A stretch of DNA of 62,736 bases, filler included, from Candidatus Zapsychrus exili (GTDB lineage Bacteria > Omnitrophota > Gorgyraeia > Zapsychrales > Zapsychraceae), in NCBI GenBank assembly GCA_030765585.1. It is 6 parts of 6 records of this genome, joined end to end, with 100 filler letters (N's around TTAATTAATTAA, not from the genome) between each part and the next. Parts side by side here need not be neighbours in the genome. Positions count along the whole stretch, not along the records: positions 28,001 to 39,416 come from JAVCCJ010000045.1; 5 more parts are not named here. One strand, written 5' to 3'. Shown in pieces: positions 21,801 through 55,732 of this stretch. The notes under the pieces were generated by a model. The model worked only from the letters and a program-made list of their open reading frames with translations, did not search any database and was not told the DNA's origin. Each line of letters starts with the position of its first letter. Within the stretch, counting starts at the first letter, position 1. The position numbers and the translations under genes are program-made.

Positions 21801-24716
21801 CCTATTTCCATCAGGAATAGTAATTGATAAAGCGATAAAGAACCAGTTTGTATTATTGTTTCCTCCATCAGTACAATTAAAACAAGTAATTGTATTTAAA
21901 AGTGCATCGGAATCCGACACATTTAAATAAAGCGCATCCTGCTCTCCATTAGGAAATGATACGCTCCATTTCTGACCAGAAGTCTGTGACCTTAAAACTA
22001 TCTTAATATTTGGATTATTTGCCCTTACGTCAAAATCGCCTTCAACAGTCTGTGTTGATCCTACTGCAAATGTAACTATTTTTGATGCATCTCTTATACG
22101 AAGATCATAAAATGTTGTGTCTCCTGTAACAATTGCCTCATCTACTGTATCAAACGTAACCTTGCCGTTTGAATGAGTAAATGTTCCACCTGAATTAGTC
22201 CAATCATCTGCTACTGTAAATAATAGTCCAGCTCCTGGCGCTATTATCTCTCCTGCGCTTAAAACAAAACTTGAGTTAACATCTATATTACTATTAAGCG
22301 CATTTATCGTACCTCCGTCAACAGTTAAAAGACCTGTATTAGTCATAGTGTTTGCATTTGTAGATATATCAAGCGTGCCACCTGTCACGTTTAAAGTACC
22401 TGCAATACTTAAATCACCTACAGTCTGAAATATATCAGGAGTTGCATTTTGATCATTAAACGCAAGATTATAATAGTCTGGATCACCAAAATCTTTTACA
22501 ATATGTGTATTTGCAATGCCATCATCATCTCCAAGATACGTAAATGTTCCTGAATCAATATCATAAGTTCCAAATGTCGCATTTGATTCATCACCATCTA
22601 ATTGAATATTTCCTTCATTAGAAAGTTCTCCGTCGACTATTAAATCATAACCATCTGCTGTTACAACCCCGCCTATCTCAACAATTAATTCTTCAATATT
22701 TACATTTGAATAAAGTATAGGATCACTACCTGCAACGTCAGGAATTGTTACGATATCGTCAGCGTTTGGAACCAAACCTAAATCCCAGTTACCAGGAGTA
22801 TCCCAGTTGTCAGTTAAGTCACCTTGCCAAGTAATTGTCGCAGCACCAAAAACCCAGTTAGTGTTATTTCCGCTATTAACTGAAGCACGAGCAACCAAAG
22901 TTAAACCAGACGCATTGTTGTCTGACACATCAGCATAATAAATAGACTGCAAAGCACCTGATGTTAAATTGATTGATGTTTGCGTTCCAGGATTACTACT
23001 TACTATAGATAATAATTCTCCAGAGGAACCTTGCAAATTAAGTAAACCACTTGATGCTATTGTTTGCTCTTCTCCTGCCTCAAAAGTTAGAGTCGCTGCA
23101 GTTGTTGTAACTTTGGTTAGATTATAGAAAGTTGAACTTCCAGATATGCTTTGATTTCCACCATCATTATCAAAATTAACAGTACTACTTGAATGAGTAA
23201 ATGTTCCTCCCTGATGGTCATAGTTGCCATATATTGCAAGTGTCTTTCCGCTTCCTGGTGCGGTTAATGTTCCGGATGAAATTGTTACATCACCGTTTGC
23301 ATCAATGTCTGAGCCTGTTGCAGTTAAAGTGCCACCATTAACCAAAATATCACCCTCAACTGCTAAGGTATTTCCATTTGTTGATATATCAAGCGTACCT
23401 TTTGTAACTGTTAAATCACCTAGAATAGTTAAGTCACCATTTGTTTGAATTACATCATCTGAATCTGTTAAATCAATAACTACATTGTAGAAATCGTTTG
23501 CGCCAATATCTGACATTACAAATGTATCTGGATTACCATCTCCATCACCTGTAAAGTAGAATGTACCTGAATCAGGATCGATATTATTTATATTAACCAC
23601 TTCACCGCCTTGTAAATAAACGATCCCTTCATTATCCAAAGTATCTGTTATGGTTAAATTATATCCATCTAAAGTAAAACTTGATCCAGTTACGCCACCA
23701 GCTTCTAGAGTTACATCAGTTAAAGAAATATTTGTTGTTAAAACTGGTTGATTCACAGGTCCTCCAGGAATAATGATAGAGTCCCCATCTATTGGAACCA
23801 AACCTAAACTCCAATTATATGGATTATCCCATACTGTTGACACATCGCCATCCCAAGTAACTGTAACAGAACCAAATGTCCAATTGGTATTATTTCCTGA
23901 ATCAACTGATGCTGGAGTTCTTCCAACAAGAGTTAATCCAGATGCCCAAGAATCCTGAACATCTAAATATGTCATTACCTGTAAACCATCAGTGTTAAGG
24001 TTAAGTTTTCCCTGCACACCATCAACATTACTTCTTATTTCTAATCTAGTCGTAGTGCCTGTTCCTTCTAAATTTAAAATTCCTTTTACATTTTGCTCAG
24101 CGCCAACAGAACTATCAAAAAGAATTGTCTCAGGACTTGCACCTGAAACTATCTTTGTTAAATTCCAAAATGTTGTTGAACCATTAACGTATTGACCAGA
24201 TGCTCCCTGGCCTGTTCCATTAAAAGTTACAGTTTTTGTACCATAAGCAAATGTTGCATTATTTGTCCAGTTTTTTGCAATAGTTATGTCATATCCATTT
24301 GAATCAAGTGTTCCTGCAGAATTTGTAAAACTACCATCAATATTAATATTACTATTTTGAGCGTATGCATATCCAGTGCCAGAATGAGTTAAATTATAAA
24401 ATAATTTATCTGCGCCAATACCTGACGAATAAATTAATTGTGTACCTGTTGCTTTTCTTAAATCAACTGTTCCAGTGTTTGAAGTATAAGTTCCATCTCT
24501 ATTGTCCCAATCACCAGTAACACCAACTGTACCAGTTGAAGTTTGAAGAGTACCATTTATATCAACAGTTCCAATAACTCTTAGAGTTCCTGTATTAACA
24601 TTTATGGTGGAGCCTAAAGGCAGGTTTAGTCCTTGAGAGAATGCATATTTTAAACTTACTGTAAATAAGAATAGTGATGCAAAAATAAAAATAATACTGA
24701 ATGCAAAAATAGACAT
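15801..24716 (-). CDS. Giant (~2970 aa) outer-membrane/adhesin-like protein: beta-rich repeats, Ig-like, DUF11, SdrD-B-like, FlgD-like domains, large beta-barrel region, TPR-like tail
   Basis: Signal peptide from ATG 24716 (MSIFAFSIIF...YAFS|Q); DUF11 (VKVGDVVTYTVTIEN...DRIPPGF); GKVFLDKNENGVQD; C-terminal GVGYDFTDFNDDLTDLDY...GPFVRLTGK. ORF track starts at 24821. Confidence 0.8.
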   Translation of the reverse strand: MSIFAFSIIFIFASLFLFTVSLKYAFSQGLNLPLGSTINVNTGTLRVIGTVDINGTLQTSTGTVGVTGDWDNRDGTYTSNTGTVDLRKATGTQLIYSSGIGADKLFYNLTHSGTGYAYAQNSNINIDGSFTNSAGTLDSNGYDITIAKNWTNNATFAYGTKTVTFNGTGQGASGQYVNGSTTFWNLTKIVSGASPETILFDSSVGAEQNVKGILNLEGTGTTTRLEIRSNVDGVQGKLNLNTDGLQVMTYLDVQDSWASGLTLVGRTPASVDSGNNTNWTFGSVTVTWDGDVSTVWDNPYNWSLGLVPIDGDSIIIPGGPVNQPVLTTNISLTDVTLEAGGVTGSSFTLDGYNLTITDTLDNEGIVYLQGGEVVNINNIDPDSGTFYFTGDGDGNPDTFVMSDIGANDFYNVVIDLTDSDDVIQTNGDLTILGDLTVTKGTLDISTNGNTLAVEGDILVNGGTLTATGSDIDANGDVTISSGTLTAPGSGKTLAIYGNYDHQGGTFTHSSSTVNFDNDGGNQSISGSSTFYNLTKVTTTAATLTFEAGEEQTIASSGLLNLQGSSGELLSIVSSNPGTQTSINLTSGALQSIYYADVSDNNASGLTLVARASVNSGNNTNWVFGAATITWQGDLTDNWDTPGNWDLGLVPNADDIVTIPDVAGSDPILYSNVNIEELIVEIGGVVTADGYDLIVDGELSNEGNIQLDGDESNATFGTYDIDSGTFTYLGDDDGIANTHIVKDFGDPDYYNLAFNDQNATPDIFQTVGDLSIAGTLNVTGGTLDISTNANTMTNTGLLTVDGGTINALNSNIDVNSSFVLSAGEIIAPGAGLLFTVADDWTNSGGTFTHSNGKVTFDTVDEAIVTGDTTFYDLRIRDASKIVTFAVGSTQTVEGDFDVRANNPNIKIVLRSQTSGQKWSVSFPNGEQDALYLNVSDSDALLNTITCFNCTDGGNNNTNWFFIALSITIPDGNRTIDQQPTIMGITESNYVVTVKGYVGTVLTQIGTVIADINGNFFFEVPTEFLDIGANELIPFVGILQGPTTKNLTVTATPTTDQVSIIDSHVDGDRVHGALPTFTGFGLAGESLEVVAMDELGALLYQTVGTGLVDTADSRYSVTPSPLVKAVNYIAVVINGVASDILEIKLTDPFGIAFDSFTNHPINDAIVSLYRTSDNQLATIADGDLDITDVNPVIVDSDGFYSYICADGDYYITINALGYDYPSAKTTFPSDRVIVTGSKGEVFNVASAIIEMDQPADANGNVMRVEKDANKKEVKVGDVVTYTVTIENLTTATFIDVYLEDRIPPGFKFLEGRVTLDGDQADNPLGQRPLSFYIDKMTGNQKREFKYQLVVGSGVTLGDYENIAWARYWNWQLLSNYATEHVKVVLDPLFDLGTVIGKVFLDKNENGVQDMPEYNYLDRDTYIENPVPKVRIAMEDGTVVTTDEEGRFSVPALTPGRHLFRLDERSLPDGSYLTTDKVVVVDVTPGLLVKVNFGVNLDYDRFRSEDQHFFMKDMKVSQDKSKPTPRLNVAMFTDEIPIYNDVFSEAAEFRIFANYAPFIKKWKLEIIDKDVYKTIKSFEGNNLNIHDPIYWDGLDKTGEHVRTDRNYVYLVYVEDEKGDYDETVLTPIKFNFIEDEEALKTYKLDRLTDWNKKYRQWISEELKKSNMFVQSILVEGETVTIDRLSSAKIQSVRVLKDGQIVSEVPLLAKQGFTASELLGEEIKDQRKDDKLEIILPKGDYEISVGEGAGSSEIDGARLTNGDLMLSEGFTDTKEIIGSPVNMYSKKIKVGEDYLFFVGMGDAKIGYTFNKGNIEPVQSDEKYKGGFWSEGKMAYFLQGKVLGKYLITSSFDSQREQKELFKDLDPDQYYPIYGDSSELDTEATDTQSSLYLMLEWDKSSVQWSNYEVAFDETEFAQFSRTLFGGKINFESLSTTEYGESKTKVVAFHSRVKQKAAHNEFLATGGSLYFLKHRDVIEGSDSVKVEVRDRITGLMISETEMKEGADYELDYDSGRIIFWMPVSMMIQSYSIISNDLLEGNLVYVTADYEYDTKDKTDEGSEGVRVRQAITDSVLVGATYVRESQEDSNYELKGTDLTLHLGPNATIKAEYAESESGAKGTYVSTDGGISFTDLSSSDVSHGKAYGISSDAKLFNRLGLTSYYKWIDNGFSSADSVSQQGKETVGFKGVYDLTDTSRVTVSHDIQTLLDDGNLQTQTQVGGHKTATTLMQVVHEGRKLKLTGEYQRTDIDDAVTDIVAARADYQITDGLAVSVEKQFSLQDEGAADQTTVGVVATPNDNLTLSAEQKISDSGTATILGVKADMSEKFALTGEYAIAVDSAGESVVSSAIGTEITPNEKTKITTAIGIAKTSGGDTAATLAVMGEVEPREGTKIVSELALAGAGNSRETSLKVSGESDVKFGEETTIAGEATISSSATGDNTTTLAFGGTSKIDEDTQTEAKVGVGTSAGVQTTTVMFAGTKQVSEDVQTETKIDMIETSEGSQSTTYTFGTKQKLTDELSAVSSRSFGDSSDGTHTADDTYSLVREKDGKKLEGSLSRAYSQGTEEVSESNIFGLSGDVNDKWALTGTYEKGDVKNLDGTNTERDAIALAAAYVNKDEETGEDLQSSTKIEFRKDDGEKDSQQYLLYHATEGKINSALSVFSKIELSKTRNITDGYTEAAHREFVLGGAYRPITHDRLNMLGRYTYLQDKSPGDQEDMSDIEYESSHVIAAEAIYDLTEKWQLAEKFAYRLSKEKVTGFDFTKTHTWLMIHRLNYRVDRDWTIGGEFRTLTQEEASDQKRGFLFEVARNVGEYAQLGVGYDFTDFNDDLTDLDYTTQGPFVRLTGKLYDRTPEEIERAKQRWLEEKIKKWAWVMVHQELSRKSSPILSELNEYFILAQKASEVGNLEESSQIYKDIIMAGQMMYEEAAEYIRGRVEREEKLQEMKTLADQYFKNGQYEKAKKILEKILEEAEYGMVE

Positions 24717-24938
24717 ACGTCCGCTATTACATTCGATTATTCGTCGAAAGATAAACTTACATTGAGACTGTCCCTTGAAGACTGTCCCTTTTTTATAAGA
24801 TTTTTTTAGATTAAAAAGCATTCATTTTATATTTAATATTCATATTAATAATAGTATAAATATATCTATTATATATTATATTATATATAAGACTTGATTC
24901 AATAGTTGTTTGATTTATTTTTAGGTAAGATCTTGACC

Positions 24939-27900: not shown

Positions 27901-28000
27901 NNNNNNNNNNNNNNNNNNNNNNNNNNNNNNNNNNNNNNNNNNNNTTAATTAATTAANNNNNNNNNNNNNNNNNNNNNNNNNNNNNNNNNNNNNNNNNNNN
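27901..28000. other. Artificial contig spacer
   Basis: N44-TTAATTAATTAA-N44 (stops in six frames). Confidence 0.98.
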
Positions 28001-28004
28001 ACTC

Positions 28005-29024
28005 TTAATAATTATTAATTCTGTCTTCAAACTCTTGTAAGTATTCCATTATTTCTTCAAAAGAAGGTGCTATTGAGAAAATCATTTGTTGCATAAGGCG
28101 ATAATCATGTTTTAGTGCATTAAGCCTAAACTTAAGGGGGACTAATTTTAATGTTCCTGGAACAGCAGTATTATAACTAGCCCAAGAACATTTAAAAAAA
28201 AGGCTGTTATGCTCTCGCACAGTATCAAGCAAATAAATATTAGATAATGCTTTGTCACCCAATCCAGCCTTTATCATAAGCGCTAAATCATAGTAATGAC
28301 GAGAAAATCTATCGGGAATAGCTAAATCTTTTGAGCGATGATACTGCGCATGCAAAATAGTTGCTTTTTCCCAAAATGTTCTTTCTATTTCTAAAGTTTT
28401 AATAGTACAAGACGGCCTGGAGAAATGCTCAGGAAATTCTTCTGCAGAATAAGGTTTAATTATATATTCTGAGGCTGGCCAATGATCTGACCTTGCGCCT
28501 AATTCTAGCCATATTGTAGGCTTCACATAATCTTGCGAGGGCTGCTTCATTTCTCGTGGATATACAAATAAAATTGTCTGTGGGTCTTTTTCATCAACGC
28601 TTAATTCCCAGAATACATCTTCCCCTAAAACTTTCATGAAAGATTCCTTCAATGCAGGCAAAAAAGAATCACTTATAAACGTTATGCATTTTGACTGAAT
28701 ATCATCGAGTCTTTTTCTTATTTGTTTTCCACTTAAATCTGCGGTTACATCTTTGTTTCCAGAAAAGCCTAAATCATCTCGCAATATTGATAAATCAATA
28801 TCTTCTGAGAAGCGATTGATGACATTAAAAACTTTCGAAAGAGTTGTCCCACCTTTAAAAATTATATTTAAAGGTGGATCTTTTATTGTAAATATCTTTT
28901 CAAGAGCCCAACATACCCAGAAATCTTTTTCAATAATGACAAAAGGCATATCCCCTCGCTTTGAAACCGTCTCATTAAATAATTCGTCTCGCTCTCTTTG
29001 TGCTAATCTTGCAACGCCATCCAT
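28005..29024 (-). CDS. abiEii: AbiEii-family nucleotidyltransferase toxin (type IV TA)
   Basis: IEKDFWV, FKGGTTLSK, RFSEDIDL, RTFWEK, SRHYYD; ATG 29024 overlaps upstream stop (TAATG). Confidence 0.92.
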   Translation of the reverse strand: MDGVARLAQRERDELFNETVSKRGDMPFVIIEKDFWVCWALEKIFTIKDPPLNIIFKGGTTLSKVFNVINRFSEDIDLSILRDDLGFSGNKDVTADLSGKQIRKRLDDIQSKCITFISDSFLPALKESFMKVLGEDVFWELSVDEKDPQTILFVYPREMKQPSQDYVKPTIWLELGARSDHWPASEYIIKPYSAEEFPEHFSRPSCTIKTLEIERTFWEKATILHAQYHRSKDLAIPDRFSRHYYDLALMIKAGLGDKALSNIYLLDTVREHNSLFFKCSWASYNTAVPGTLKLVPLKFRLNALKHDYRLMQQMIFSIAPSFEEIMEYLQEFEDRINNY

Positions 29025-29632
29025 TATTTGTTTTCTCCTATAATCTTGTTCACAACAGAACCTACCCACTCGGGAGCTTGTCGACTGTCTATTCTAAGAT
29101 GCTTTTTATCTTTATCTGTTAATATTTTATTTAATCTATAAATCACATCGCTATCAACTGACTGTTTGCCTAAATAACGTATAGCTTGTAAAATCAATTC
29201 AGACTTTTTTCCGCATATAGCCATATTCTTAGGAGATGCATGTCTAAAAATTAAAGACTGATTATATATTTTCAATTTACGATCTCTGCCATCAGTAAGA
29301 AAAACTATTTTGGCAGGAACCTGAGTTGATAACCCTAATTTATTAACTGCAAGTGCACCTGAAATAAGAATACGAATATTATTCTTTCTAGCAATTGCTT
29401 TGGCAACCTCCTCAATAACAGGTGATAACACTCCACCCAATTTATCATTAATTTTAGGATAATCATAAAGACCTGGCTTTAATCGACGAATTATCTCTTT
29501 TGCGGCAAGACGTGAAAGAGACTTATCTACAGATGCACGAGTCCCTAAGTCAAGGAAATCCTTGCTTGTGTATGCACGACCCCTCCCCTTGCCTCTGATT
29601 CTCTTAATTATAGTATTCTCAATGCTTTGCAT
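29024..29632 (-). CDS. abiEi: DUF6088/AbiEi-family antitoxin
   Basis: DFLDLG.RASVDKSLSRL...RRL..GLY; LGLSTQVP..FLTDG; translationally coupled to toxin. Confidence 0.88.
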   Translation of the reverse strand: MQSIENTIIKRIRGKGRGRAYTSKDFLDLGTRASVDKSLSRLAAKEIIRRLKPGLYDYPKINDKLGGVLSPVIEEVAKAIARKNNIRILISGALAVNKLGLSTQVPAKIVFLTDGRDRKLKIYNQSLIFRHASPKNMAICGKKSELILQAIRYLGKQSVDSDVIYRLNKILTDKDKKHLRIDSRQAPEWVGSVVNKIIGENK

Positions 29633-29651
29633 AATTTATCTCATTATCTTT

Positions 29652-29728
29652 TGTCAGAAAAGTATAGGTAGTTTTTCTGACATATTTACCTTTAAAAGAA
29701 GTATAATACCATTTTATAATTAATGCAA
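29652..29728 (-). promoter_or_regulatory. sigma70 promoter and inverted-repeat operator of abiE
   Basis: TTGCAT-17-TATACT (29728-29700, minus); IR TGTCAGAAAA-N11-TTTTCTGACA (29652-29682). Confidence 0.7.
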
Positions 29729-29840
29729 ATGTTTTTTAAAAGATTCTAATTTAATAGAACAGTCTCAAATTATTATAGTTAATTCAATAGATTTATGAAG
29801 TAATTAATATACAGTGCACCTAAATTAACAGACAATAAAA

Positions 29841-29884
29841 AAGCCCTCTGTAAGTCATTATACATAATGACTTACAGAGGGCTT
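29841..29884 (-). terminator. 20-bp-stem hairpin next to junction 1
   Basis: AAGCCCTCTGTAAGTCATTA-TACA-TAATGACTTACAGAGGGCTT, U-tract on the minus strand. Confidence 0.7.
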
Positions 29885-29890
29885 CAAAAA

Positions 29891-29992
29891 CTCCCCGAAC
29901 GAGAGGGAAATCCAAACTTTTCGATAATTGTTTATGTAGGGATGAATTATAAGAAAAATAGTGATCGACGGATAATTGCTTTCAACCAATAA
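29891..29992 (+). other. Junction 1 (CTCCCCG) and start-less 33-codon frame LPEREGNPNF...
   Basis: Same CTC CCC register and AAC TTT spacing as junction 3. Confidence 0.45.
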
Positions 29993-30003
29993 TAAATCTA
30001 CTC

Positions 30004-30549
30004 TTACTTTGAAAAATATTTTCTGATATCAAATCCTATTCCGCTTATATTCGGCTGCAAAATAACTCCATCCATTATTTTTCGTCCAACAGTTTTTTTC
30101 ATTTCTTTATTAATAGAAAAATCTTTCAAGATTTTCTTTTTTTTAATATCTTGAAATATCGTTTGTATCAATTTCACTACATCACTAGATGTCTCACAGC
30201 ACTTCTTCAAAGGAACTATCACTAGCTTATCATTTAATCCCTCACCATTATTACATTCTAATGATTTAAACAAATGAGGATTTAATGTTGTTATCAAAAT
30301 AGCTGGCAGCATGTCTTCACCTTCTTCTCCATTTATATGATGCCAAGACAAAATTTGACTATCAACATGAGAGCCTATCCCCTTAATAAAAATCGCATTA
30401 TTTCTAGATGCGTTATCTGCTATTAAAGAAAAATTATTCTTTATTGTTTCAGATAATGGCTCTGCCCACCCATAATCTAAAAGATATAGAAAATACTCTC
30501 TTTCTATATTTTCTGGTATTTGTTCAAGTGAATGTATCATTAACCCCAT
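30004..30549 (-). CDS. Hypothetical protein (single-gene cassette cargo)
   Basis: 181-aa ORF with GGAG SD; no motif recognised with confidence. Confidence 0.8.
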   Translation of the reverse strand: MGLMIHSLEQIPENIEREYFLYLLDYGWAEPLSETIKNNFSLIADNASRNNAIFIKGIGSHVDSQILSWHHINGEEGEDMLPAILITTLNPHLFKSLECNNGEGLNDKLVIVPLKKCCETSSDVVKLIQTIFQDIKKKKILKDFSINKEMKKTVGRKIMDGVILQPNISGIGFDIRKYFSK

Positions 30550-30642
30550 ACAAATCTCCTAACATTGGAAAAGCCCTCAACACTTTTCAGTATGAGGGCT
30601 TTAGTCCCCATCATCCGAAAAAATTCGGATACTATGGGTAAT

Positions 30643-31053
30643 TGGCTCCCCGGTCTGGACACAAAAAGAACAAATTCCCGTGTTGTAAGTGAAGTGTTGC
30701 CATACCATTACAGATATTGCAAAAAAACAAAAACGCTCGTTCGAGGCTTAAAACCCAATTTCATCCCAAAAGATGTAGTTGTTTCTAAAAAAGCAATGAA
30801 ACATTATCAACATGTTGAATCATACGAAAACCCAATAGAAAAAGCATTAGAATATAAAAGGATCATTCAAGAAGAAAATCTAAATCAAAATCAACTGGCA
30901 AGAAAACTTGGGATCTCCCGGGTAAGAGTAAATCAAATATTGAAACTTTTAAAATTACCAGAAGATCAACAAAAATATATACTGGAATATGGAAAAGAAA
31001 AAATGATTACAGAAAGACAATTGCGTAAAGTTTCAACTATTGACAATCGTTAA
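30643..31053 (+). pseudogene. Junction 2 plus gene fragment ending in ParB/Spo0J-type HTH
   Basis: WLPGLD...NPIEKALEY..IIQEENLNQNQLARKLGISRVRVNQILKLLKLP; ORF-track 5' part runs through hairpins; minus strand reads GTCCAGACCGGGGAGCCA. Confidence 0.6.
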
Positions 31054-31089
31054 ATGCTACATAAATAATAGGAGGCGTTTTACAAAATA

Positions 31090-33366
31090 TTATTTCGAAT
31101 CATTATTAAAACTCAGCATCAATCTCTCTATTCCTTTTAATCTGTTTTCTTTAAGTACACTATTAGCAAAATTCTGTGCTTCTTCCAAATTTAAATTCAT
31201 TATAATGTTCTGAATTCTGGGAATATAATCAGGGTTTAAACTCATAGTTCGAATGCCAATCCCTAATAAAAAGTTTAAATATTTTTCATTATGTACCATA
31301 TCTCCGCAAATCGACACTTCTTTATTGAATTTCTTCGCGGATTTAACAACTTTATTTAATGCTCTTAATATCGAAGGATGATGCGGCAAATAGAGTTCAG
31401 CAACTTTCTCATTAGTCCTGTCTACAGCAAGCATATATTGAATAAAATCATTTGTGCCAATACTAAAAAAATCTGCATGACACGCCAAATCATCTAAGAT
31501 TTCCAAAACAGAAGGAAGCTCAATCATTAGTCCGATTTGCAATTTCTCATTACAGGGAATTTTTTCTTTTTTTAAGAATTTGATACAATCCGATACTATT
31601 TTTTTGGCTTCAAGGAATTCATCCAATGACGCAATCATAGGAAACATTATTCTTATTTTGGAATTTGCTCCAGCACGTAATATGGCTCTGATTTGCTGTG
31701 AAAAAATATCTTTATGTCTCAATGAAAATCGTATTGAACGCATCCCTAGAAATGGATTTGCTTCTTTCGAATGAAGCTGAAAATAAGAAAGCACCTTATC
31801 TCCTCCAATATCTAGCGTTCGAAATGTAATTTCCTTACCTAGCATACCCGCCACTAACTTCTTGTAAATAATATATTGCTCTTCTTCACTTGGAAAATCA
31901 TTCCTGACAATAAAAGGAAATTCTGTGCGATAAAGTCCGATTCCTTCCGCCTTAAAATCATGCGCAGATTTAAGATCACCTAATAAATTTATATTCGCCA
32001 TTAAAACAACTCTAGATCCATCACAAGTATAAGTCTCAGAAGACACATTCTTTTTTAGTTTTGTACTTTTTAATGTTGTATCTTCTTTATTTTTGAAAGT
32101 AGCAATTATTTCTTTTGAAGGACGGACATAAATATTCCCTTGCTCCGCATCCATCAAAATTTTTATTCCCTGCGGCAAAGAAAGAAGCGCTGGTTCATCG
32201 GCAATAATAAGAGGTATCTTCAATGATTGAGATAAGATAGAAAGATGCGATGTCACTCCTCCGCTAAGAAGAATTACGCCCTTAACTTTCTGTGAAAATA
32301 GCTTCAAAATATCAGATGCAAAAAGTTCTTCAGCTATCACAATCCGTCCTTCGTAATTTAGGACATTCTGATCTTTCCCGATAAGATTCCCTAAAAGCCT
32401 TTTTCCAATGTCCCGAACATCCTGACTTCTTTCCTGTAAATATGGATTGGGTATGCTCTCAAATTTCTTAACGTAAGATTCAACGACGCTGATGATTGAT
32501 TCTATTGGATCAATTCCATTCTTTATTTTCAGGGTTATTAAATCAATAAAGTTTTTGTCTTTAAGCATCAAGATTTGCGCAGTAAAAATCAATGAAGCAA
32601 CATCTGAAAGCTTCTCCTCAACCTTTTTTTGAATATTATTTAATTGCTTTTCTGTTGCCCTAACTGCTTTAATGAAATCCTCAAGGACATACGCGCCTGA
32701 ATGCTTTTGGCAATAAGATCTCAAATTTATTTCATCACTAATGACCATCACCTCAGAGAAAGCTAATCCGGAAGATCCGACTTTCCCTTTAACAAATTTC
32801 AAATCCTTCTTTTTAGAGACTGCTTTCCTTGATTCATGTGTTTCTTCAAGGGACATAATAAACCGGGTCATTTCAATGGTATTAGCAAGCTGTGATGTAA
32901 TCGCTTGTAACGCCTTAATATCCTCATCAGAAAAGTAATCCTTTATTGTATTCTGAATTACGATAGCACCAATTCTATTCTTTCCACGTACAATAGGCAC
33001 AACTAAAAACGACTCGTATCGCTCTTCTCCTAAACCGGGGAAATAACGGAAATTAGAATTCTGACTAGCATTGCGCTCACAGATAGGCCGTAATTCTTTG
33101 AGAGCCAAGCCTGTTAACCCCTCATTCAACTTTAATTTTACATTTCCGATGAAATCCTGATTTAATCCTTTTGTAGCTTTTAAAATCAATTCTTGTGTAT
33201 CATCATAAAACAGATAAACCGAGCAAACATCAGATTTCATGTGATGGGCAATCATCTCAACAATTTTCTGCAAAAATTCCTCAAGACTTGTTGAATCACA
33301 AAAAGGCCCGCACAATTCTCCAACATCACAAATCAGTTTTATTTGATCTCTCTTATTTTTCTTCAT
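31090..33366 (-). CDS. ptsP: GAF-containing PEP-protein phosphotransferase (EI-Ntr)
   Basis: N-terminal GAF (DVCSVYL..LKATKGL); GGVTSH phospho-His; GIGLYRTEF, RTLDIGGDK, SIGTND. Confidence 0.93.
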   Translation of the reverse strand: MKKNKRDQIKLICDVGELCGPFCDSTSLEEFLQKIVEMIAHHMKSDVCSVYLFYDDTQELILKATKGLNQDFIGNVKLKLNEGLTGLALKELRPICERNASQNSNFRYFPGLGEERYESFLVVPIVRGKNRIGAIVIQNTIKDYFSDEDIKALQAITSQLANTIEMTRFIMSLEETHESRKAVSKKKDLKFVKGKVGSSGLAFSEVMVISDEINLRSYCQKHSGAYVLEDFIKAVRATEKQLNNIQKKVEEKLSDVASLIFTAQILMLKDKNFIDLITLKIKNGIDPIESIISVVESYVKKFESIPNPYLQERSQDVRDIGKRLLGNLIGKDQNVLNYEGRIVIAEELFASDILKLFSQKVKGVILLSGGVTSHLSILSQSLKIPLIIADEPALLSLPQGIKILMDAEQGNIYVRPSKEIIATFKNKEDTTLKSTKLKKNVSSETYTCDGSRVVLMANINLLGDLKSAHDFKAEGIGLYRTEFPFIVRNDFPSEEEQYIIYKKLVAGMLGKEITFRTLDIGGDKVLSYFQLHSKEANPFLGMRSIRFSLRHKDIFSQQIRAILRAGANSKIRIMFPMIASLDEFLEAKKIVSDCIKFLKKEKIPCNEKLQIGLMIELPSVLEILDDLACHADFFSIGTNDFIQYMLAVDRTNEKVAELYLPHHPSILRALNKVVKSAKKFNKEVSICGDMVHNEKYLNFLLGIGIRTMSLNPDYIPRIQNIIMNLNLEEAQNFANSVLKENRLKGIERLMLSFNNDSK

Positions 33367-33383
33367 GGTTTATGAATTCCACT

Positions 33384-33417
33384 AAAAAAGGGACGGAACT
33401 TAATTATTCCGTCCCTT
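33384..33417 (-). terminator. Intrinsic terminator between glnK and ptsP
   Basis: Minus strand AAGGGACGGAA-loop-TTCCGTCCCTTTTTT. Confidence 0.75.
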
Positions 33418-33439
33418 ATAGTTTTTCATTATACACAAT

Positions 33440-33781
33440 TTAGCCTATTGCGTCATGACCTTCTTCTCCAGTCCGGATACGGATACATCTTTGCAAATCA
33501 TTAACAAAAATTTTTCCGTCTCCGATCTCTCCTGTCTTAGCTCCCTTGATTATGGCCTTTATAGTCTGATCAACGAATTTTTCATTAACAGCTATCTCAA
33601 GCCTAACTTTCTTCAAGAGATTTACCTCATGGACAACACCTCTGTATGTCTCGTTAAATCCTTTTTGTTGTCCACATCCCAGTACATTGGTAACGGTCAT
33701 TTTATGAACTTCCGCATCAAAAAGCGCCTTTTTAACATCAGGCAATTTATGCGGTTGTATCATTGCGGTTATCAGTTTCAT
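33440..33781 (-). CDS. glnK: P-II nitrogen regulator
   Basis: [37 protein letters not shown]; adjacent to amt. Confidence 0.93.
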
Positions 33782-33805
33782 GATATATTTTCCTCCTTTA
33801 GATTA

Positions 33806-35194
33806 TTATTCTGTTGTAAAAATTTGGAATCCTGCATAAGCTTCCATTCCATGTTCTGTGATATCCAGGCCTCTCAATTCTTCTTCCGGTGTTACACGAA
33901 TGCCTACTGTCGCCTTGATAACTTTAAAAAGAATGAGTCCTGTAAAGAATGCCCAAATAAACGCAGTTCCCACACCTAAAAACTGAGAACCAAGCTGAGC
34001 AAATCCTCCACCATATAACAATCCGCCATTGGCCTCCCCAATACCTATAGCCAATTCAGCATTAAACAATCCACATGCAAGCGTACCCCAAGCCCCGCAT
34101 ACACCATGGACAGATACCGCACCCACAGGATCATCAACTTTAAGAACCTTGTCTATAAAAAGAACACTTAAAACAACCAAGATGCCCCCAACAAGGCCTA
34201 TCAAAATTGAACCAATAGGTGTAACGGTATAGCAACCTGCTGTAATAGATACTAACCCAGCAAGTGCCCCATTGAGAGTCATTGATACATCCGGTTTCTT
34301 AAACAATATCCAAGATATAATCATGGCTGAAACAGCTCCAGCAGCGGCTGCAAGATTTGTTGTCACAGCAACACGACCTATTTCTCCATTACCAACAGTC
34401 GTAGATCCTGGATTAAATCCAAACCATCCAAACCATAATATGAACACCCCTAACGCTGCTAAATTAATATTGTGTCCTGGAATTGCCTTTGACTCTCCAT
34501 TTTTATCATATTTGCCTAATCTAGGACCCAAAACAATAGCACCAGCTAATGCCAACCATCCACCTATAGAATGAACAACTGTGGAACCTGCAAAATCAAC
34601 AAATGGTGTATTTAAATTTTCTAACCATCCGCCTCCATCCAATAGGCCTCCCCACGCCCAAGATCCGAAAATGGGATAAATAAATGCACAGATAAAAACA
34701 CTATAAAAGATGTATGCTTTAAACTTAGTTCTACCTGCCATAGCTCCTGAAACGATCGTTGCTGCAGTTCCGGCAAATACAGTCTGAAAAAGCAAAAACG
34801 TGTAATTCCAGTGTGCCCCATCACTTCCTATACCACTGAGCATAAAGTTCGATGTTCCAAAAAAACCATTAGAAACTCCAAACATCAAACCAAAGCCAAT
34901 GAAGAAAAAGGCAAGTGTTCCTATGGAAAAATCCATAAGGTTTTTCATAATGATATTGATTGCATTCTTTGCACGTGTAAAACCGGTTTCAACCATTGCA
35001 AAACCTGCTTGCATAAAAAATACCAGAAAAGCAGCCAAACACGTCCAAACAATGTTAAGGTTCTCGTTTAATCCCTCTATCGCTTTTGCATTTGTAGCAA
35101 CATCCTCAGCATGCGCCGGAACTGCAGACAAAACTGCGAACACCGCCAACAGCGGGATCGTTACGCCCAAGATTATTTTTAATTTACGTAACAT
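33806..35194 (-). CDS. amtB: Ammonium transporter
   Basis: FMQAGF, DFAGSTVVH, LWFGWFGFNPGS, DDPVGAVSVHG, E..GLD..EHG. Confidence 0.96.
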   Translation of the reverse strand: MLRKLKIILGVTIPLLAVFAVLSAVPAHAEDVATNAKAIEGLNENLNIVWTCLAAFLVFFMQAGFAMVETGFTRAKNAINIIMKNLMDFSIGTLAFFFIGFGLMFGVSNGFFGTSNFMLSGIGSDGAHWNYTFLLFQTVFAGTAATIVSGAMAGRTKFKAYIFYSVFICAFIYPIFGSWAWGGLLDGGGWLENLNTPFVDFAGSTVVHSIGGWLALAGAIVLGPRLGKYDKNGESKAIPGHNINLAALGVFILWFGWFGFNPGSTTVGNGEIGRVAVTTNLAAAAGAVSAMIISWILFKKPDVSMTLNGALAGLVSITAGCYTVTPIGSILIGLVGGILVVLSVLFIDKVLKVDDPVGAVSVHGVCGAWGTLACGLFNAELAIGIGEANGGLLYGGGFAQLGSQFLGVGTAFIWAFFTGLILFKVIKATVGIRVTPEEELRGLDITEHGMEAYAGFQIFTTE

Positions 35195-35215
35195 TTCTAG
35201 ACCCTCCTTTCTTAA

Positions 35216-36007
35216 TTAAAAGTTAAAAGCTAAAGATACACCCGCAAAAAACTGTTCTTTTTGATCATTGCCACCGCCTGATTCTAGATCACCATGTGGT
35301 ATACTATAACCAATATTGGGTGCTATCGTAATTTTCTCTGTTAAAGGAACACTTAATCCTGCAGTAGATAAGACGTACCCGCCTTTTCCATCAATAAATG
35401 CATTATCATTATACCCATATTCTAAGCCAAGATCTAATGTAATGCCGTAATCTTCTGATAGATCAAAACTATGGCCGATACCTGCCATAAAATAATTTCC
35501 ATCAGCCCCGCCTTGCGCTTCATCTTCATAATCGTTGTAATACGTAATATATGGAGACAGGAAGGTATCCAACGTTACTCCAAAATAATACTCTTTAGAA
35601 TACAGGTCTGATTCGGAAAACCCATACCATGTGTGTCCAACTGACAGCCCGACTTTCTCAAATGATTCTCCAAGAAATCCGAGGTCAAAACCATAGCCAA
35701 TCCAACCATCTACTTCATCTGAGGACAGAGCGTCTTTATTTTGCAAATCCCAACTGCCCCAAAATCCTCCTTCAAAACCATTTGAGGAAAGGTTAACTCC
35801 TGGTTGCAAAACAGGATCATCGTCAAGGAGAAACCCTCTCCAAACATATTTATCATAAAAATCGAGGGATGCAGATACCTCTATTTCGATTCCTTTGTCT
35901 TTGAGATAATCTCCTAAAATTGTTTCGGCTTTTACTTGGTGCGTTGTATTAAATGTTCCTAAAAAAACAATTGCTGAAATAACTATTTTTGATAATATTT
36001 TATTCAT
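35216..36007 (-). CDS. Small outer-membrane beta-barrel (TorF/TIGR02001-like porin)
   Basis: Signal peptide; KYVWRG...PVLQPG; C-terminal F; typical amt-glnK neighbour. Confidence 0.75.
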   Translation of the reverse strand: MNKILSKIVISAIVFLGTFNTTHQVKAETILGDYLKDKGIEIEVSASLDFYDKYVWRGFLLDDDPVLQPGVNLSSNGFEGGFWGSWDLQNKDALSSDEVDGWIGYGFDLGFLGESFEKVGLSVGHTWYGFSESDLYSKEYYFGVTLDTFLSPYITYYNDYEDEAQGGADGNYFMAGIGHSFDLSEDYGITLDLGLEYGYNDNAFIDGKGGYVLSTAGLSVPLTEKITIAPNIGYSIPHGDLESGGGNDQKEQFFAGVSLAFNF

Positions 36008-36113
36008 TTTTTTTCCCTTTCATTTTTTTGATTTTCAAAATTTTTTTTCTATTAAGACATCATCGTCTTTTGCGAACGTCCAGCGTTCTTTTTTTTCATA
36101 CACTTTCAGTAGA

Positions 36114-36192
36114 AAATAAAAAATCCCCTTAGTTAAACGTCACCGTCTATAAGAGGACTTCCTTGTCTTGTTTTAGATTATCTTCAATGATA
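36114..36192 (-). promoter_or_regulatory. ANTAR-type dual-hexaloop RNA plus overlapping terminator before porin-amt-glnK
   Basis: TATC-ATTGAA-GATA and GAC-AAGGAA-GTC; second stem overlaps GTCCTCTTA...TAAGGGGATTTTTT. Confidence 0.8.
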
Positions 36193-36239
36193 CCTAAAAC
36201 ATTGATTCCAGATTCTGTTATCTAATTTTACTTCTCAAT

Positions 36240-37478
36240 CTAAAAATTCTTCTCCTTTTTAAGATCGATTACTAGAAGAATCGATTCTGCAACTTCTTTC
36301 ATTGAACGACGGGAATCCATGCTTTTTTTATGAATTAAATTATACGCTGTATTTTCATCTAAATTATTGGAACTCATCAAAACGCTTTTGGCGCGTTCAA
36401 TCAATTTTCTTGCTTCTAAAGCATCCTTCGCTTTAAGCGCATCATCTAATAATTTTGTATTCTCAATTGCAACAGCCGCTTGATTTGCAACCATTTGTAA
36501 TATGTCAACTTCTTCCTTGATAAATGAATGTGGTTCTTTTGTGTAAATAGTAATAAGGCCTACTGCTTTATCTTTGACAACCATCGGGACACAAAGCATA
36601 GAAGTAAGATTTTCTTTAATAGCCAAATCCCTAAACCTGTAGTTTTTTTCTTTCCTTACGTCATATATCATAACGGGTTTTTTAGTTGTAACTACTTTCC
36701 CGCTTAAACTATTATTTACTTTAAGATTAGGTTTTAATGTGTACTCTTCACTTAGACTCTGAGTAGCTTTTATTACTAACTCATTTCCTTTTTTATCTAA
36801 AAGCATGATAGAGCATATTCTAGAATTAAGCATTTCAGCTGTAACAACAACAATTAAATTTAGTATTTCATCAAGATAATTCTCAGAAGTTATCGATTGG
36901 CTCACCTTAACTAAACTGTCAAACTGCAAAGCCTTCTTTTTTGTTTCTTCATAAAGACGTGCATTTTCAATTGAGCAGCCTATCTGTCTGGAAACAAGTG
37001 AAATTAAATTAACCGTTCGTTCACTGTATTCATGTGACTTTTTGTGCTGAACATTGATAACACCTACAGCTTCTCTTTTATTAAGGATTGGGAAAGAAAG
37101 AAATGCTTCGTATTTATCTTCCGGCAAAACATCCAATCCTTTAAAACGTTCATCTTTATAGGCTTTATTACTAATAGCAACCGGTTTAATATTCCTAGCG
37201 ACCCATCCAGTAATGCCTTCCCCAACCTTCAAGCTTATTTTCCCAAGATCCTTCTTATGTGGTGTTTTTGAGGCCATAAGAATTAAATTTCGTTTTTTTT
37301 CATCAAACAAGTAAATAAATACAGAATCGCCCTTAGTCATATCACTAACGACTTTCACAACCTCTTTGAGAATCAAATTTAGGTCAAGTTCTGAGTTTGT
37401 AATTTCAACGACACTCCTTAAAACCTTGTTTTCTTGGCCCTGACTGACATTAAGTTTATTTATTATTTTTTCTTCCAT
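36240..37478 (-). CDS. GAF-GAF-ANTAR antiterminator
   Basis: Two GAF domains; C-terminal LEARKLIERAKSVLM...AYNLIHKKSMDSRRSMKEVA; ATG 37478 preferred since TTG 37517 lies in the terminator tail. Confidence 0.92.
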   Translation of the reverse strand: MEEKIINKLNVSQGQENKVLRSVVEITNSELDLNLILKEVVKVVSDMTKGDSVFIYLFDEKKRNLILMASKTPHKKDLGKISLKVGEGITGWVARNIKPVAISNKAYKDERFKGLDVLPEDKYEAFLSFPILNKREAVGVINVQHKKSHEYSERTVNLISLVSRQIGCSIENARLYEETKKKALQFDSLVKVSQSITSENYLDEILNLIVVVTAEMLNSRICSIMLLDKKGNELVIKATQSLSEEYTLKPNLKVNNSLSGKVVTTKKPVMIYDVRKEKNYRFRDLAIKENLTSMLCVPMVVKDKAVGLITIYTKEPHSFIKEEVDILQMVANQAAVAIENTKLLDDALKAKDALEARKLIERAKSVLMSSNNLDENTAYNLIHKKSMDSRRSMKEVAESILLVIDLKKEKNF

Positions 37479-37515
37479 GAGATTTTCCGATATATTATTT
37501 ATTTTTATAATTTGC

Positions 37516-37570
37516 AATAAAAAAGTCCTCTTCTAAACAATCAATGTTTTAAAAGAGGACTTCTGTGCCC
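37516..37570 (-). promoter_or_regulatory. ANTAR-type attenuator 2 in leader of the ANTAR gene
   Basis: GGGC-ACAGAA-GTCC hexaloop overlapping AAGTCCTCTT...AAGAGGACTTTTTT terminator. Confidence 0.7.
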
Positions 37571-37610
37571 TTCTCAATATTTACTAAATTTATCTATTTT
37601 AATTCTTCCA

Positions 37611-37686
37611 TAAAAAAACCGACCCCACCATTATTTGGTGACCGTCGGACATCTACGTCCTGCCTTTAAAAAACATCAATGATGTT
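37611..37686 (-). promoter_or_regulatory. ANTAR-type attenuator 1 in leader of the ANTAR gene
   Basis: C-ATTGAT-G hairpin, then GGAC-GTAGAT-GTCC overlapping CCGAC..CACCA..TGGTG..GTCGG-TTTTTTT. Confidence 0.7.
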
Positions 37687-37712
37687 CAAAAACAGTAATG
37701 CTTGATGTTTAA

Positions 37713-37741
37713 AATATACAATTAATTTTGAACCTTGTCAA
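37713..37741 (-). promoter_or_regulatory. sigma70 promoter of nitrogen module
   Basis: TTGACA-17-TATATT. Confidence 0.75.
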
Positions 37742-37843
37742 TACTTATTTTAGTTTTTTGTTATTTTTTTAATTTGACAATTTAAACCAATCCATATTTT
37801 AAAGGCGGTTGCAAGAAAAATTCTCACAACCGCACTGTAATAA

Positions 37844-38170
37844 CTCCCCGTGCAAGACAGCTGTAAGAACTTTTTGTATTCCTTTGAACTGCAACGAGAT
37901 AGAATCATTTCCAAGCGAAAACTTCAGCATCAAAATCACATTAATTCCTATGTAAACCCCATAAAACAAGCAAAGGCATATCAGGAAGTCATGCAGGAAG
38001 AAAATCTAAACCAAAATCAATTGGCAAAAAAACTAGGAATATCACGGGTAAGAGTAAATCAAGTATTAAACCTTTTAAAACTACCAGAAGATCAACAAAA
38101 ATATGTTTTAGAACATGGAAAGAAAGAAATGATCACAGAAAGACAATTACGGAAAGGTTTGTCAATTTAG
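37844..38170 (+). pseudogene. Junction 3 plus gene fragment ending in ParB/Spo0J-type HTH (paralog of 30643-31053)
   Basis: TAA|CTC CCC GTG CAA GAC; NPIKQAKAY..VMQEENLNQNQLAKKLGISRVRVNQVLNLLKLP; preceded by GCGGTTG..CAACCGC hairpin. Confidence 0.6.
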
Positions 38171-38830
38171 CTTCTCTGGATGATGTTTTACAACTTTCGC
38201 TTGAATCATATAAATTACGTCTTCAGCAATGTTGGTCGCATGATCACAAATTCTCTCTAAATGCCTAGCAATAAGAAGAAGCGGAACCGCTCGAGTAGCG
38301 GTTGAAGCATCTTTGCTCATATAATCGTTGATTAGTTCGTCCTGGATTAAATTTCTCAGATTGTCAGCTTCAGAATCAGAAAATATTACTTTTTTCGCCA
38401 AGTTTTCATCATTATTAACAAAAGCGTCTATAACATCTTTTACCATTTTTCTAGCAACATCAGTTAATTTAGGAATATCAATTAGAGGTTTCAATATTGG
38501 TTGATCTGAGAGCTCAAGAACTCGCTGAGCAATATTTACAGCCAAATCTGCTATTCGTTCCAATTCAGCATTAATTTTCATGCCAGTTGTAATGGATCTT
38601 AAATCTCGAGCTATTGGCTGTTTCAGGGCTAACAGATCAATAGCAGTCTCTTCTATTACCAATTCTAGCTCATCTATCTTCTGATCTTCGCTAACAACAG
38701 CTTTTGCTAATTCTAAATCTCTATTCTTTAAAGCCTCTATTGATTTGTAAATTGCTTCTTCAGCAAGAGTTGCCATTTTTAAAATATTTGTATTAAGATT
38801 TTTTAGTTCATAATCAAAATGTCTTTTCAT
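38162..38830 (-). CDS. phoU: Phosphate signalling protein PhoU
   Basis: QPIARDLR, ELERIADLA.NIA, LERICDHATNIAE. Confidence 0.96.
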   Translation of the reverse strand: MKRHFDYELKNLNTNILKMATLAEEAIYKSIEALKNRDLELAKAVVSEDQKIDELELVIEETAIDLLALKQPIARDLRSITTGMKINAELERIADLAVNIAQRVLELSDQPILKPLIDIPKLTDVARKMVKDVIDAFVNNDENLAKKVIFSDSEADNLRNLIQDELINDYMSKDASTATRAVPLLLIARHLERICDHATNIAEDVIYMIQAKVVKHHPEKLN

Positions 38831-38847
38831 TTCGTCTCCTTTTAGGA

Positions 38848-39416
38848 TTATCCAAATCTACCTGTAATATAATCTTCAGTAATTTTCTTTCTGGGTTTAG
38901 TGAAAATCTTGTTTGTAACATCATATTCTATTAACTCACCCATCATAAAAAAAGCTGTGTAATCGGATATCCGGGCAGCTTGCTGCATATTATGGGTAAC
39001 AATAATAATGGTGTATTTTTTCTTTAATTCATGGATTAACTCTTCGACCTTAGCTGTAGCGACTGGATCTAATGCTGAAGCCGGTTCATCCAATAATAAT
39101 ACTTCCGGCTCAACAGCCAATGCTCGAGCAATACACAATCTTTGCTGCTGTCCTCCTGACAGAGAAAATGCACTTGTATGAAGCCGGTCTTTTATTTCTG
39201 CCCAAAGGGCTGCATCACGTAAACTTTTTTCCACTTTATTAACAATAAAGTTCTTATCTTTAATCCCATTTATTTTTAATCCATAGGCGACATTCTCAAA
39301 AATTGATTTTGGGAACGGATTTGATTTCTGAAAAACCATCCCAACATTTCTCCTAAGATCCACAACGTCTAAATTCTTTTCAAAAATATTATTTCCTTCA
39401 ATGCAAATTTCACCCT
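38848..39416 (-). CDS. pstB: Phosphate ABC ATPase, 5'-truncated by contig end
   Basis: [45 protein letters not shown]. Confidence 0.95.
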
Positions 39417-39516
39417 NNNNNNNNNNNNNNNNNNNNNNNNNNNNNNNNNNNNNNNNNNNNTTAATTAATTAANNNNNNNNNNNNNNNNNNNNNNNNNNNN
39501 NNNNNNNNNNNNNNNN
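39417..39516. other. Artificial contig spacer
   Basis: N-TTAATTAATTAA-N. Confidence 0.98.
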
Positions 39517-39656
39517 ATAGCTTCCTTGGTTGCCTCACAAAATCTTACGTTTTTTAACCTTTTAGCACCATTTAAATCCGGCTTGTCTCTATAAAACTTT
39601 ACCTTAATCCATTGGCTTCTGAATCTTTCGGAAAGCTTACGATGAATGTTGGTCAT
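39517..39656 (-). CDS. 5' fragment, possibly DUF169 family
   Basis: VKFY....RFCEA; start overlaps mrp stop; cut by spacer. Confidence 0.5.
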
Positions 39657-46148: not shown

Positions 46149-46248
46149 NNNNNNNNNNNNNNNNNNNNNNNNNNNNNNNNNNNNNNNNNNNNTTAATTAA
46201 TTAANNNNNNNNNNNNNNNNNNNNNNNNNNNNNNNNNNNNNNNNNNNN
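46149..46248. other. Artificial contig spacer
   Basis: N-TTAATTAATTAA-N. Confidence 0.98.
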
Positions 46249-55682: not shown

Positions 55683-55732
55683 TCTGCCTTGGGAGCAGAG
55701 GGTCGCTGGTTCGAATCCAGTCTCCCCGACCA
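55683..55732 (+). pseudogene. 3' fragment of tRNA-Pro(TGG) = att site
   Basis: TCTGC-CTTGGGA-GCAGA anticodon arm, GGTTCGAATCC T-arm, CTCCCCG-A-CCA; no 5' acceptor strand or D arm upstream. Confidence 0.88.

Follow-up and report, generated by a model that had tools for sequence, protein, structure and literature searches.

The question raised by one contig of Candidatus Zapsychrus exili (Omnitrophota; GenBank assembly GCA_030765585.1) is how a pair of defence genes, a single-gene unit, a five-gene nitrogen unit and the phoU and pstB genes came to lie in a row, all on the minus strand, with junctions of one architecture between them. Three such junctions fall on this contig (C12; positions 28002-39416), which is part of a 62.7-kb window, the whole stretch of DNA analysed, in which several contigs are chained by N45-TTAATTAATTAA-N45 spacers. 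The linker word occurs five times (spacers at 27901-28001 and 39417-39517, linkers at 46193, 51904 and 56793), and adjacency across the spacers is artificial. We propose that the contig probably comes from a genomic island anchored at tRNA-Asn(GTT) that grew by one site-specific integration after another, the integrating elements having large serine recombinase (LSR) genes that read across the attachment (att) core. Throughout, G000 denotes the own genome (2.04 Mb, 129 contigs) and G001-G040 its relatives, with C for contigs, L for loci and P for proteins.

Three junctions share one architecture

Each junction has a copy of CTCCCCG on the plus strand, at 29891 (J1), 30646 (J2) and 37844 (J3), with an inverted repeat upstream and, downstream, an open frame that starts with LP and reads LPEREGNPNF, LPGLDTKRTN and LPVQDSCKNF respectively; coordinates and frames are as given in an earlier note on this DNA, which had described the contig as an integron-like cassette array. 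At J1, hairpin 1 (29841-29884, minus strand) is a rho-independent terminator with 21-nt arms that are 100% complementary, for which a terminator scan reports 20 pairs and a T tail, and the core is followed by a shortened LPEREGNPNF module of 33 codons (29891-29989, plus strand). At J2, hairpin 2 (30570-30602, minus strand) and a small second hairpin (30614-30629) precede TGG, the core (30646-30652) and a longer module, which together occupy 30643-31053 on the plus strand. Hairpin 3 (37805-37833, minus strand; GCGGTTG...CAACCGC) belongs to the GTTGCAA...ACAAC family found at other junctions, and is followed at J3 by TAA TAA, the core and a shorter module (37844-38170, plus strand), with the frame open from the core and no start there. 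We refer to the coding module behind the core as X.

The number of cores in the window is weak evidence on its own, because the four copies (1.18 expected) are equalled or exceeded in 6 of 100 shuffles; the fourth copy, at 55722, lies inside tRNA-Pro. The whole assembly has 28 copies of CTCCCCG, of which six are hairpin-preceded junctions (three on C12, one on C11 and two on C66), and at 11 of the 28 sites the 60 nt before the core reach a folding energy of -12 kcal or below, versus 8.6% of 3000 random places, these 11 being four tRNAs, the six junctions and one other site. The assembly scan proposed in the earlier note, for a hairpin followed by CTCCCCG-N5-GA, returns five matches to the motif, with a hairpin upstream of all five. 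A loose regular expression for the hairpin motif gives 48 matches in the own genome that are mostly noise, so the hairpin family is not an abundant genome-wide repeat. Rfam at gathering threshold has no match in the whole window, and the junction regions correspond to no known RNA family. A structured RNA on the minus strand at the leaders of X was considered and dropped, as the aligned leaders show no compensatory pairs by eye and ARAGORN reports no tRNA.

Outside the window, genes for an ArsP-type permease, thioredoxin-like proteins and a DsbD-like protein lie on the opposite strand between the two C66 junctions (minus strand, at 4928 and 1351), and at the C11 junction (10883) a hairpin and CTCCCCG are followed by a start-less module with a ParB helix-turn-helix (HTH).

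The core is the end of tRNA-Asn

One LSR gene, in G020, has the ending ...E-WLPREDSNLGPSG*, and the DNA beneath it is a tRNA-Asn(GTT) gene in reverse complement. It follows that CTCCCCG is the discriminator and acceptor strand of tRNA-Asn in antisense, and that the TGG frequent before the core is its CCA end, also in antisense; partial copies of the tRNA-Asn 3' end separate the units. ARAGORN places a tRNA-Asn in matching orientation at the ends of arrays in G002:C30, G003:C17 and G020:C73, and the one in G002:C30 is itself a 'TAA CTCCCCG' junction. The flank of the tRNA-Asn in G003 (…ACAGAGGGCTTTTAAAAA|CTCCCCC) is by eye closely like the left side of J1, the 3' arm and spacer of hairpin 1 resembling the 3' flank of this real tRNA, from which we take the hairpins to be the terminator that follows tRNA-Asn. 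In G023 the hairpin of tRNA-Asn lies within the LSR codons RKPLSFIAEG, and an empty site in G036 reads hairpin-TGG-CTCCCCC-tRNA.

The own tRNA-Asn is on another contig, C70. C70 stops 147 nt beyond the tRNA 3' end and C12 ends in pstB, so that any linkage of the two would lie beyond the contig ends. As an observation in its own right, this tRNA-Asn(GTT) gene (G000:C70:7458-7745; L054 1484-1698) has a group I intron of ~210 nt in the anticodon loop (Rfam RF00028, 80.8 bits, E 1.8e-20), and split tRNA-Asn matches with gaps of ~200-700 nt are found in at least nine relatives (G006, G009, G013, G018, G022, G025, G034, G035 and G040).

Recombinase genes in relatives read into tRNA-Asn and into X

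LSR genes near tRNA-Asn and the distribution of X were both surveyed in 41 genomes of the same order. Ten of these have, by coordinates, an LSR gene that converges on tRNA-Asn within ~1 kb, and the endings of the LSRs were read in eight of the ten; all eight end as WLPR(E/V)(D/G)SN...* inside tRNA-Asn, with the antisense CCA/acceptor end used as codons (TGG CTC CCC ... GAC TCG AAC, giving WLP..DSN). The remark in the earlier note that LSRs often end in (W)LPxxD was thus correct, and the serine recombinases with a matching 3' end that it had asked for are present in the relatives, although none was found in the own assembly. By Pfam, the intact LSRs scanned (G016 and G023) have the full domain set and the truncated G020 LSR has the zinc-ribbon domain only.

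The far end of the element, 3 kb away in G020 and 40 kb away in G016, consists of hairpin, CTCCCCG and X, and because this X shares the codon register of the LSR, excision would put LSR and X in one frame. Such a frame is present in L020, where a 676-aa ORF has Resolvase, Recombinase, Zn_ribbon and HTH_ParB domains with WLP at the joint, and LSR C-termini also continue into X in L009 and in the partial proteins P0012, P0040, P0046, P0122 and P0140, with the J3 subtype of X being the one fused in P0046. LSRs of the same clade are found with either tail: the G023 LSR (tRNA tail) and P0012 (X tail) are 66% identical over the last 100 aa and the G010 LSR is 50% identical to L009, with homology extending to the core and the switch located at the core. 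The best NCBIfam match of the L020 LSR is CcrB (8e-49), at 166.7 bits versus a family cut-off of 900.

X is a ParB/Noc-type HTH module

The J2 and J3 frames are paralogues (65% amino acid identity; 76% nucleotide identity over 263 nt), and both match HTH_ParB in Pfam with 50.4 and 51.4 bits (cut-off 22.6; E 2.6e-13 for J2). The J2 copy, which we call type A, combines a tRNA-like leader, ~20 residues long and disordered, with a beta-hairpin and an HTH of the ParB/Noc type, whereas J1 retains the first 33 codons of a different subtype whose full copies, in G002 and at C11:10883 of the own genome, have the HTH. Copies of X are 106-160 aa long and many lack a start codon; in J3, C11, L005 and L021 a stop codon stands immediately before (W)LP and the first start codon is far inside. 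Homologues in Omnitrophota and Auribacterota are conserved from (W)LP, or (TGG)CTCCCCG in the DNA, onward, and nothing upstream of the core is conserved except the presence of a hairpin.

Across ten modules, pN/pS over nucleotides 1-135 of the leader is 0.42 in the LP frame and 0.98 and 1.48 in the other two, and third-position variability is 0.40 versus 0.21 and 0.18. By these substitution patterns, the 135 nt that follow the core have evolved as coding DNA would in the LP frame. An AlphaFold model of X (pLDDT 88.8) has residues 1-20 at low confidence, presumably disordered, and a confident beta-hairpin and helices from residue 21; it matches Noc/ParB structures (Foldseek E 3.9e-4), including the Noc DNA-binding domain 6y93 (rmsd 2.0 over 68 columns, 37% identity). 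X therefore resembles the ParB/Noc DNA-binding domain in both profile and fold, and is unlike ParB in that no N-terminal CTPase domain was detected in it.

X-type matches are patchy, occurring in 6 of the 41 genomes, with several copies within arrays. No relative turned up when viral contigs were scanned with the X alignment, and a search for longer proteins with the X of the window gave no LSR fusion and a single 301-aa ParB-like protein. Two proteins have composite leaders: P0108 has three WLPELD..-like leaders in tandem, ~20 residues apart, and in P0038 the leader of one subtype ends after ~40 residues and is followed directly by an LPEQDSKRT leader. Both resemble scars of recombination that has been nested or repeated.

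Arrays in relatives and broken synteny

Arrays of such junctions are present in several relatives, with three junctions at ~3 kb spacing in G001:C34, four in G002:C30 (the last being tRNA-Asn itself) and several in G003. Their cargo includes AbiE sets, restriction-modification (R-M) systems, toxin-antitoxin pairs and a PIN protein, and also housekeeping-like uptake genes (znuABC with OprB, Trk/KdpD, Fur with rubrerythrin). An initial assignment of 246-, 292- and 263-aa cargo proteins in relatives to phoU/pst was wrong, and these are AbiE and a SWIM/DUF protein. One AbiE unit is common to G001 and G003, with 72-77% nucleotide identity from a junction nearly to the next junction and different surroundings, and in G003:C71 two junctions have an identical left hairpin and different modules on the right.

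The gene order on C12 is interrupted in relatives at J2 and J3. The ANTAR and PhoU genes that face each other across J3 are adjacent in none of the 40 relatives, and where they share a contig, in four, they are 20-336 kb apart. The five-gene nitrogen unit occurs in G003:C24 in the same order (58-87% amino acid identity) within a large nitrogen cluster (glnA/nadE/gltB), with no junction or X nearby. Breakpoints at these sites, matching recombinases in relatives and a motif frequency above background have thus all been found, the absence of which the earlier note had named as telling against its reading. Its central proposal, serial site-specific insertion at one att core, is supported by the onset of conservation at (TGG)CTCCCCG, by arrays that end at tRNA-Asn and by the synteny breaks at J2 and J3.

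Two sequencing runs contain C12 DNA (shares 0.79 and 0.40), and both gave short, low-depth contigs. Four joints with sides of 21-32 nt were found in these contigs, none of them at a junction, and one read-derived contig of 605 nt spans J2 colinearly. The own assembly likewise gave no circular junction.

A recombinase gene that may span its attachment site

The most probable explanation is that each junction represents an attL-type scar of three pieces, namely a hairpin like the terminator behind tRNA-Asn, the final 7 nt of tRNA-Asn in antisense (CTCCCCG), and an element-borne half-site that would also be the start of X. The LSR gene appears to span attP, and integration would then exchange its HTH tail for 13 codons of tRNA antisense. 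Beside the tRNA, the ORF ends after these codons (WLPREDSNLGPSG*); beside the scar of another element it continues in frame into X, and on the excised circle it would presumably do the same. As the LSR gene reads across the att core, the start-less X frames of the window would be detached recombinase tails, with X being translated as part of the LSR. Each new element would bring the tRNA terminator with it and displace older units outward, and the outcome would be a series of co-oriented units whose recombinase was lost or never present. We infer that the C12 array arose by serial integration in this manner, and its units may still be able to move.

An LSR gene that spans its own attP could also yield two isoforms, one or the other depending on DNA state, with the X tail on the circle or next to a scar and 13 tRNA-antisense residues once integrated; we offer this step tentatively, as a possibility somewhat short of an even chance. 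If it is true, an LSR would gain or lose a DNA-binding domain at each integration, which would be a built-in switch of directionality or targeting for a bacterial LSR, and serine integrases, which are widely used in genome engineering, would have a new control of direction should the two isoforms prove unequal in activity. With every insertion a spare tail module would stay behind, and the arrays would become collections of exchangeable recombinase C-termini next to genes for defence and nutrient uptake. The arrays would also provide a route for uncultured Omnitrophota with small genomes to exchange AbiE, R-M and toxin-antitoxin defence systems, and modules for N, P, Zn and K uptake may be exchanged likewise. 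The same arrangement explains an annotation artefact, the (W)LPxxDSN protein ends and start-less ParB-like mini-ORFs, and assembly breaks at the tRNA-Asn locus may have the same explanation.

Several observations weigh against reading the contig as a tRNA-Asn island of such elements. At the junctions themselves, only one of the three window hairpins (that of J1) passes the strict terminator scan, ARAGORN finds no tRNA at X leaders or junctions in the window and eight loci, likeness to the tRNA, including its T arm, is weak past the 7-nt core, and the ending of the own tRNA-Asn, CTCCCCCG, contains five C as against four at the junctions. No LSR with a matching 3' end was found in the own assembly, whose sole LSR pieces (C38 and C110) end ...VEIDYP*. 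An element adjoining tRNA-Asn in G002 (Auribacterota; L035, G002:C30, 3357-4512) has a tyrosine integrase and an HTH_17 excisionase-like gene and no LSR, and thus more than one type of recombinase uses tRNA-Asn. X proteins of LSR length are rare, with one (L020 itself) in a search of 5.8 billion clusters, and in a search of representatives with 1596 matches at E<=1e-3 the best 150 are all of 268 aa or less, none of LSR length; the partial LSR-X fusions were found through predicted proteins, so that cases with LSR and X out of frame would stay hidden. The amtB, glnB, ptsP and phoU genes of the contig are each single-copy in the own genome, which is odd for dispensable cargo. Finally, LSRs do not, to our knowledge, normally recombine attP with attL or attR, and tandem growth would therefore need relaxed specificity.

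The cargo of the contig

The annotated cargo is on the minus strand across the whole of C12, and no recombinase domain (including Phage_integrase) was found by Pfam in any of its ORFs, in agreement with the earlier note on both counts. Left of J1 is the defence pair of AbiEii (28005-29069; Pfam, PADLOC 1.5e-99) and AbiEi/DUF6088 (29024-29632; Pfam, PADLOC 1.2e-66). The 755-bp unit has as its single gene a 181-aa ORF (30004-30549) with no matches in Pfam, PADLOC or NCBIfam. The nitrogen unit (31090-37517; Pfam, NCBIfam) contains genes for a GAF-EI(Ntr) protein (ptsP, 31090-33366), P-II (33440-33781), AmtB (33806-35194), a 263-aa ORF without family (35216-36007) and a GAF-GAF-ANTAR protein (36240-37517), and a promoter-like site on the same strand (37713-37741), identified solely as an 11/12 consensus match (TTGACA-17-TATATT), lies between hairpin 3 and the ANTAR gene. 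Right of J3 are PhoU (38162-38830) and PstB (38848-39363), both by Pfam, the latter gene being cut by the contig end at 39416.

Because amtB, glnB, ptsP and phoU have no second copy in the genome, both the nitrogen unit and the phosphate unit may be captured host DNA rather than free-moving cargo. Between the P-II gene and ptsP, at 33388-33417, is a perfect hairpin of 11-12 bp with T tails on both strands, possibly a bidirectional terminator internal to the nitrogen unit.

Alternative explanations

X could instead be an independent family of small ParB/Noc-like regulators with a tRNA-derived leader, placed convergently behind operons, with arrays formed by duplication and homologous recombination between X copies and the LSR read-through incidental to elements landing at tRNA-like sites. 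Some copies do have a start just before LP (ATG GGT AAT TGG at J2, ATG CTC in L009, and MWLP or MLP forms), in the G001 array the likeness between two X copies is 93% and that between their cargo 70%, which suggests conversion, and full LSR-X proteins are very rare. We nonetheless consider an independent origin unlikely, given that in J3, C11, L005 and L021 the core is immediately preceded by a stop and a start is lacking, that the X frame is always in the LSR register at the core, that the coding signal extends back to the core, and that X stands at the far end of the LSR elements of G016 and G020. It is also conceivable that the nitrogen and phosphate units consist of ordinary genes of the chromosome rather than mobile cargo, that only the pieces of hairpin, core and X are scars or miniature elements, and that the units were joined by rearrangements at these scars. 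The sole copies of amtB, glnB, ptsP and phoU fit with such a history, as does the same five-gene unit inside the core nitrogen cluster of G003, and the available excerpt on tycheposon islands describes an accumulation of flanking host DNA and degenerated elements (bioRxiv 10.1101/2020.12.28.424599). Set against this, both ends of the nitrogen unit are junctions, the ANTAR and PhoU genes adjoin in 0 of 40 relatives, and the inter-junction units of relatives also hold housekeeping-like uptake genes (znuABC with OprB, Trk/Kdp, Fur with rubrerythrin), and we regard this history as quite improbable.

An integron would account for co-oriented units with hairpin-bearing junctions between them, if the hairpins were attC-type sites used by an integron integrase to collect single cassettes behind a common promoter. 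Hardly any likelihood attaches to this, as neither IntI nor any other tyrosine recombinase is present in C12 and no attC was found, the conserved core is the tRNA end and not GTTRRRY, the hairpins are like tRNA terminators (that of G023 being within LSR codons), and the units, of up to 7.2 kb and one to five genes, include a promoter-like site of their own and a putative terminator inside; the recombinases at this core in relatives are serine recombinases. The term integron-like in the earlier note should therefore be replaced, and a tRNA-Asn-anchored tandem island of serine-recombinase elements is the better label.

Comparison with known systems

Islands formed by tandem integration at tRNA genes are well known, and the new part would be a recombinase gene that is split and swaps its tail. 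Some archaeal viruses and plasmids have split integrases of the SSV1 type, tyrosine recombinases whose ORF contains attP and is divided when the element integrates at a tRNA gene. The elements described here would be similar in having attP within the recombinase ORF, and differ in that a bacterial serine enzyme keeps its catalytic and zinc-ribbon domains and would lose or swap only the C-terminal HTH. No bacterial LSR with a frame across its own att site was found in the literature searched, where the only analogues are tyrosine integrases of archaea and, in a phage, a repressor gene spanning attP. This repressor is that of mycobacteriophage BPs, for which the available excerpt describes integration-dependent immunity, with attP inside a coding gene and integrated and free forms that differ in C-terminus and activity (PMC4557955). 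In BPs, on that account, the repressor gene spans attP and the integrase is separate, whereas here the recombinase gene itself would span the site.

The tycheposons of Prochlorococcus and classical tRNA-anchored islands are, along with SCC arrays, the known systems that come closest: as far as the excerpt of that source goes, successive integrations push older elements outward, partial tRNA copies lie between units, some elements are degenerated, and the cargo is of nutrient-uptake and defence genes, as here (bioRxiv 10.1101/2020.12.28.424599). Tyrosine recombinases associated with tRNAs are reported there for 474 of 501 tycheposons, unlike the large serine recombinases read at the tRNA in our set; the scar here, of ~7-20 nt of tRNA and a coding module X of ~400 nt, is a further difference, as is a recombinase ORF that crosses the att core. 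Tandem, att-flanked cassettes driven by LSRs (CcrAB or CcrC) are a feature of SCC and SCCmec arrays, in which cassettes without a recombinase are excised by one from elsewhere in the array and genes for anti-phage defence are enriched, according to the sections available (Nat Commun 2024, PMC11470126). The likeness extends to the best NCBIfam match of the L020 LSR being CcrB, with a score far under the family cut-off; the target here is tRNA-Asn rather than the 3' end of rlmH, and the same sections make no mention of a C-terminal module carried across the att site in SCC.

Other features of the sequences

Two repetitive regions lie apart from the junctions. A 3006-aa ORF on the minus strand of the window (15801-24821) has N-terminal parts that are repetitive and beta-rich, and in G003:C61 (L039, ~9410-10138) staggered blastn self-matches reveal internal repeats with a period of ~63 nt.

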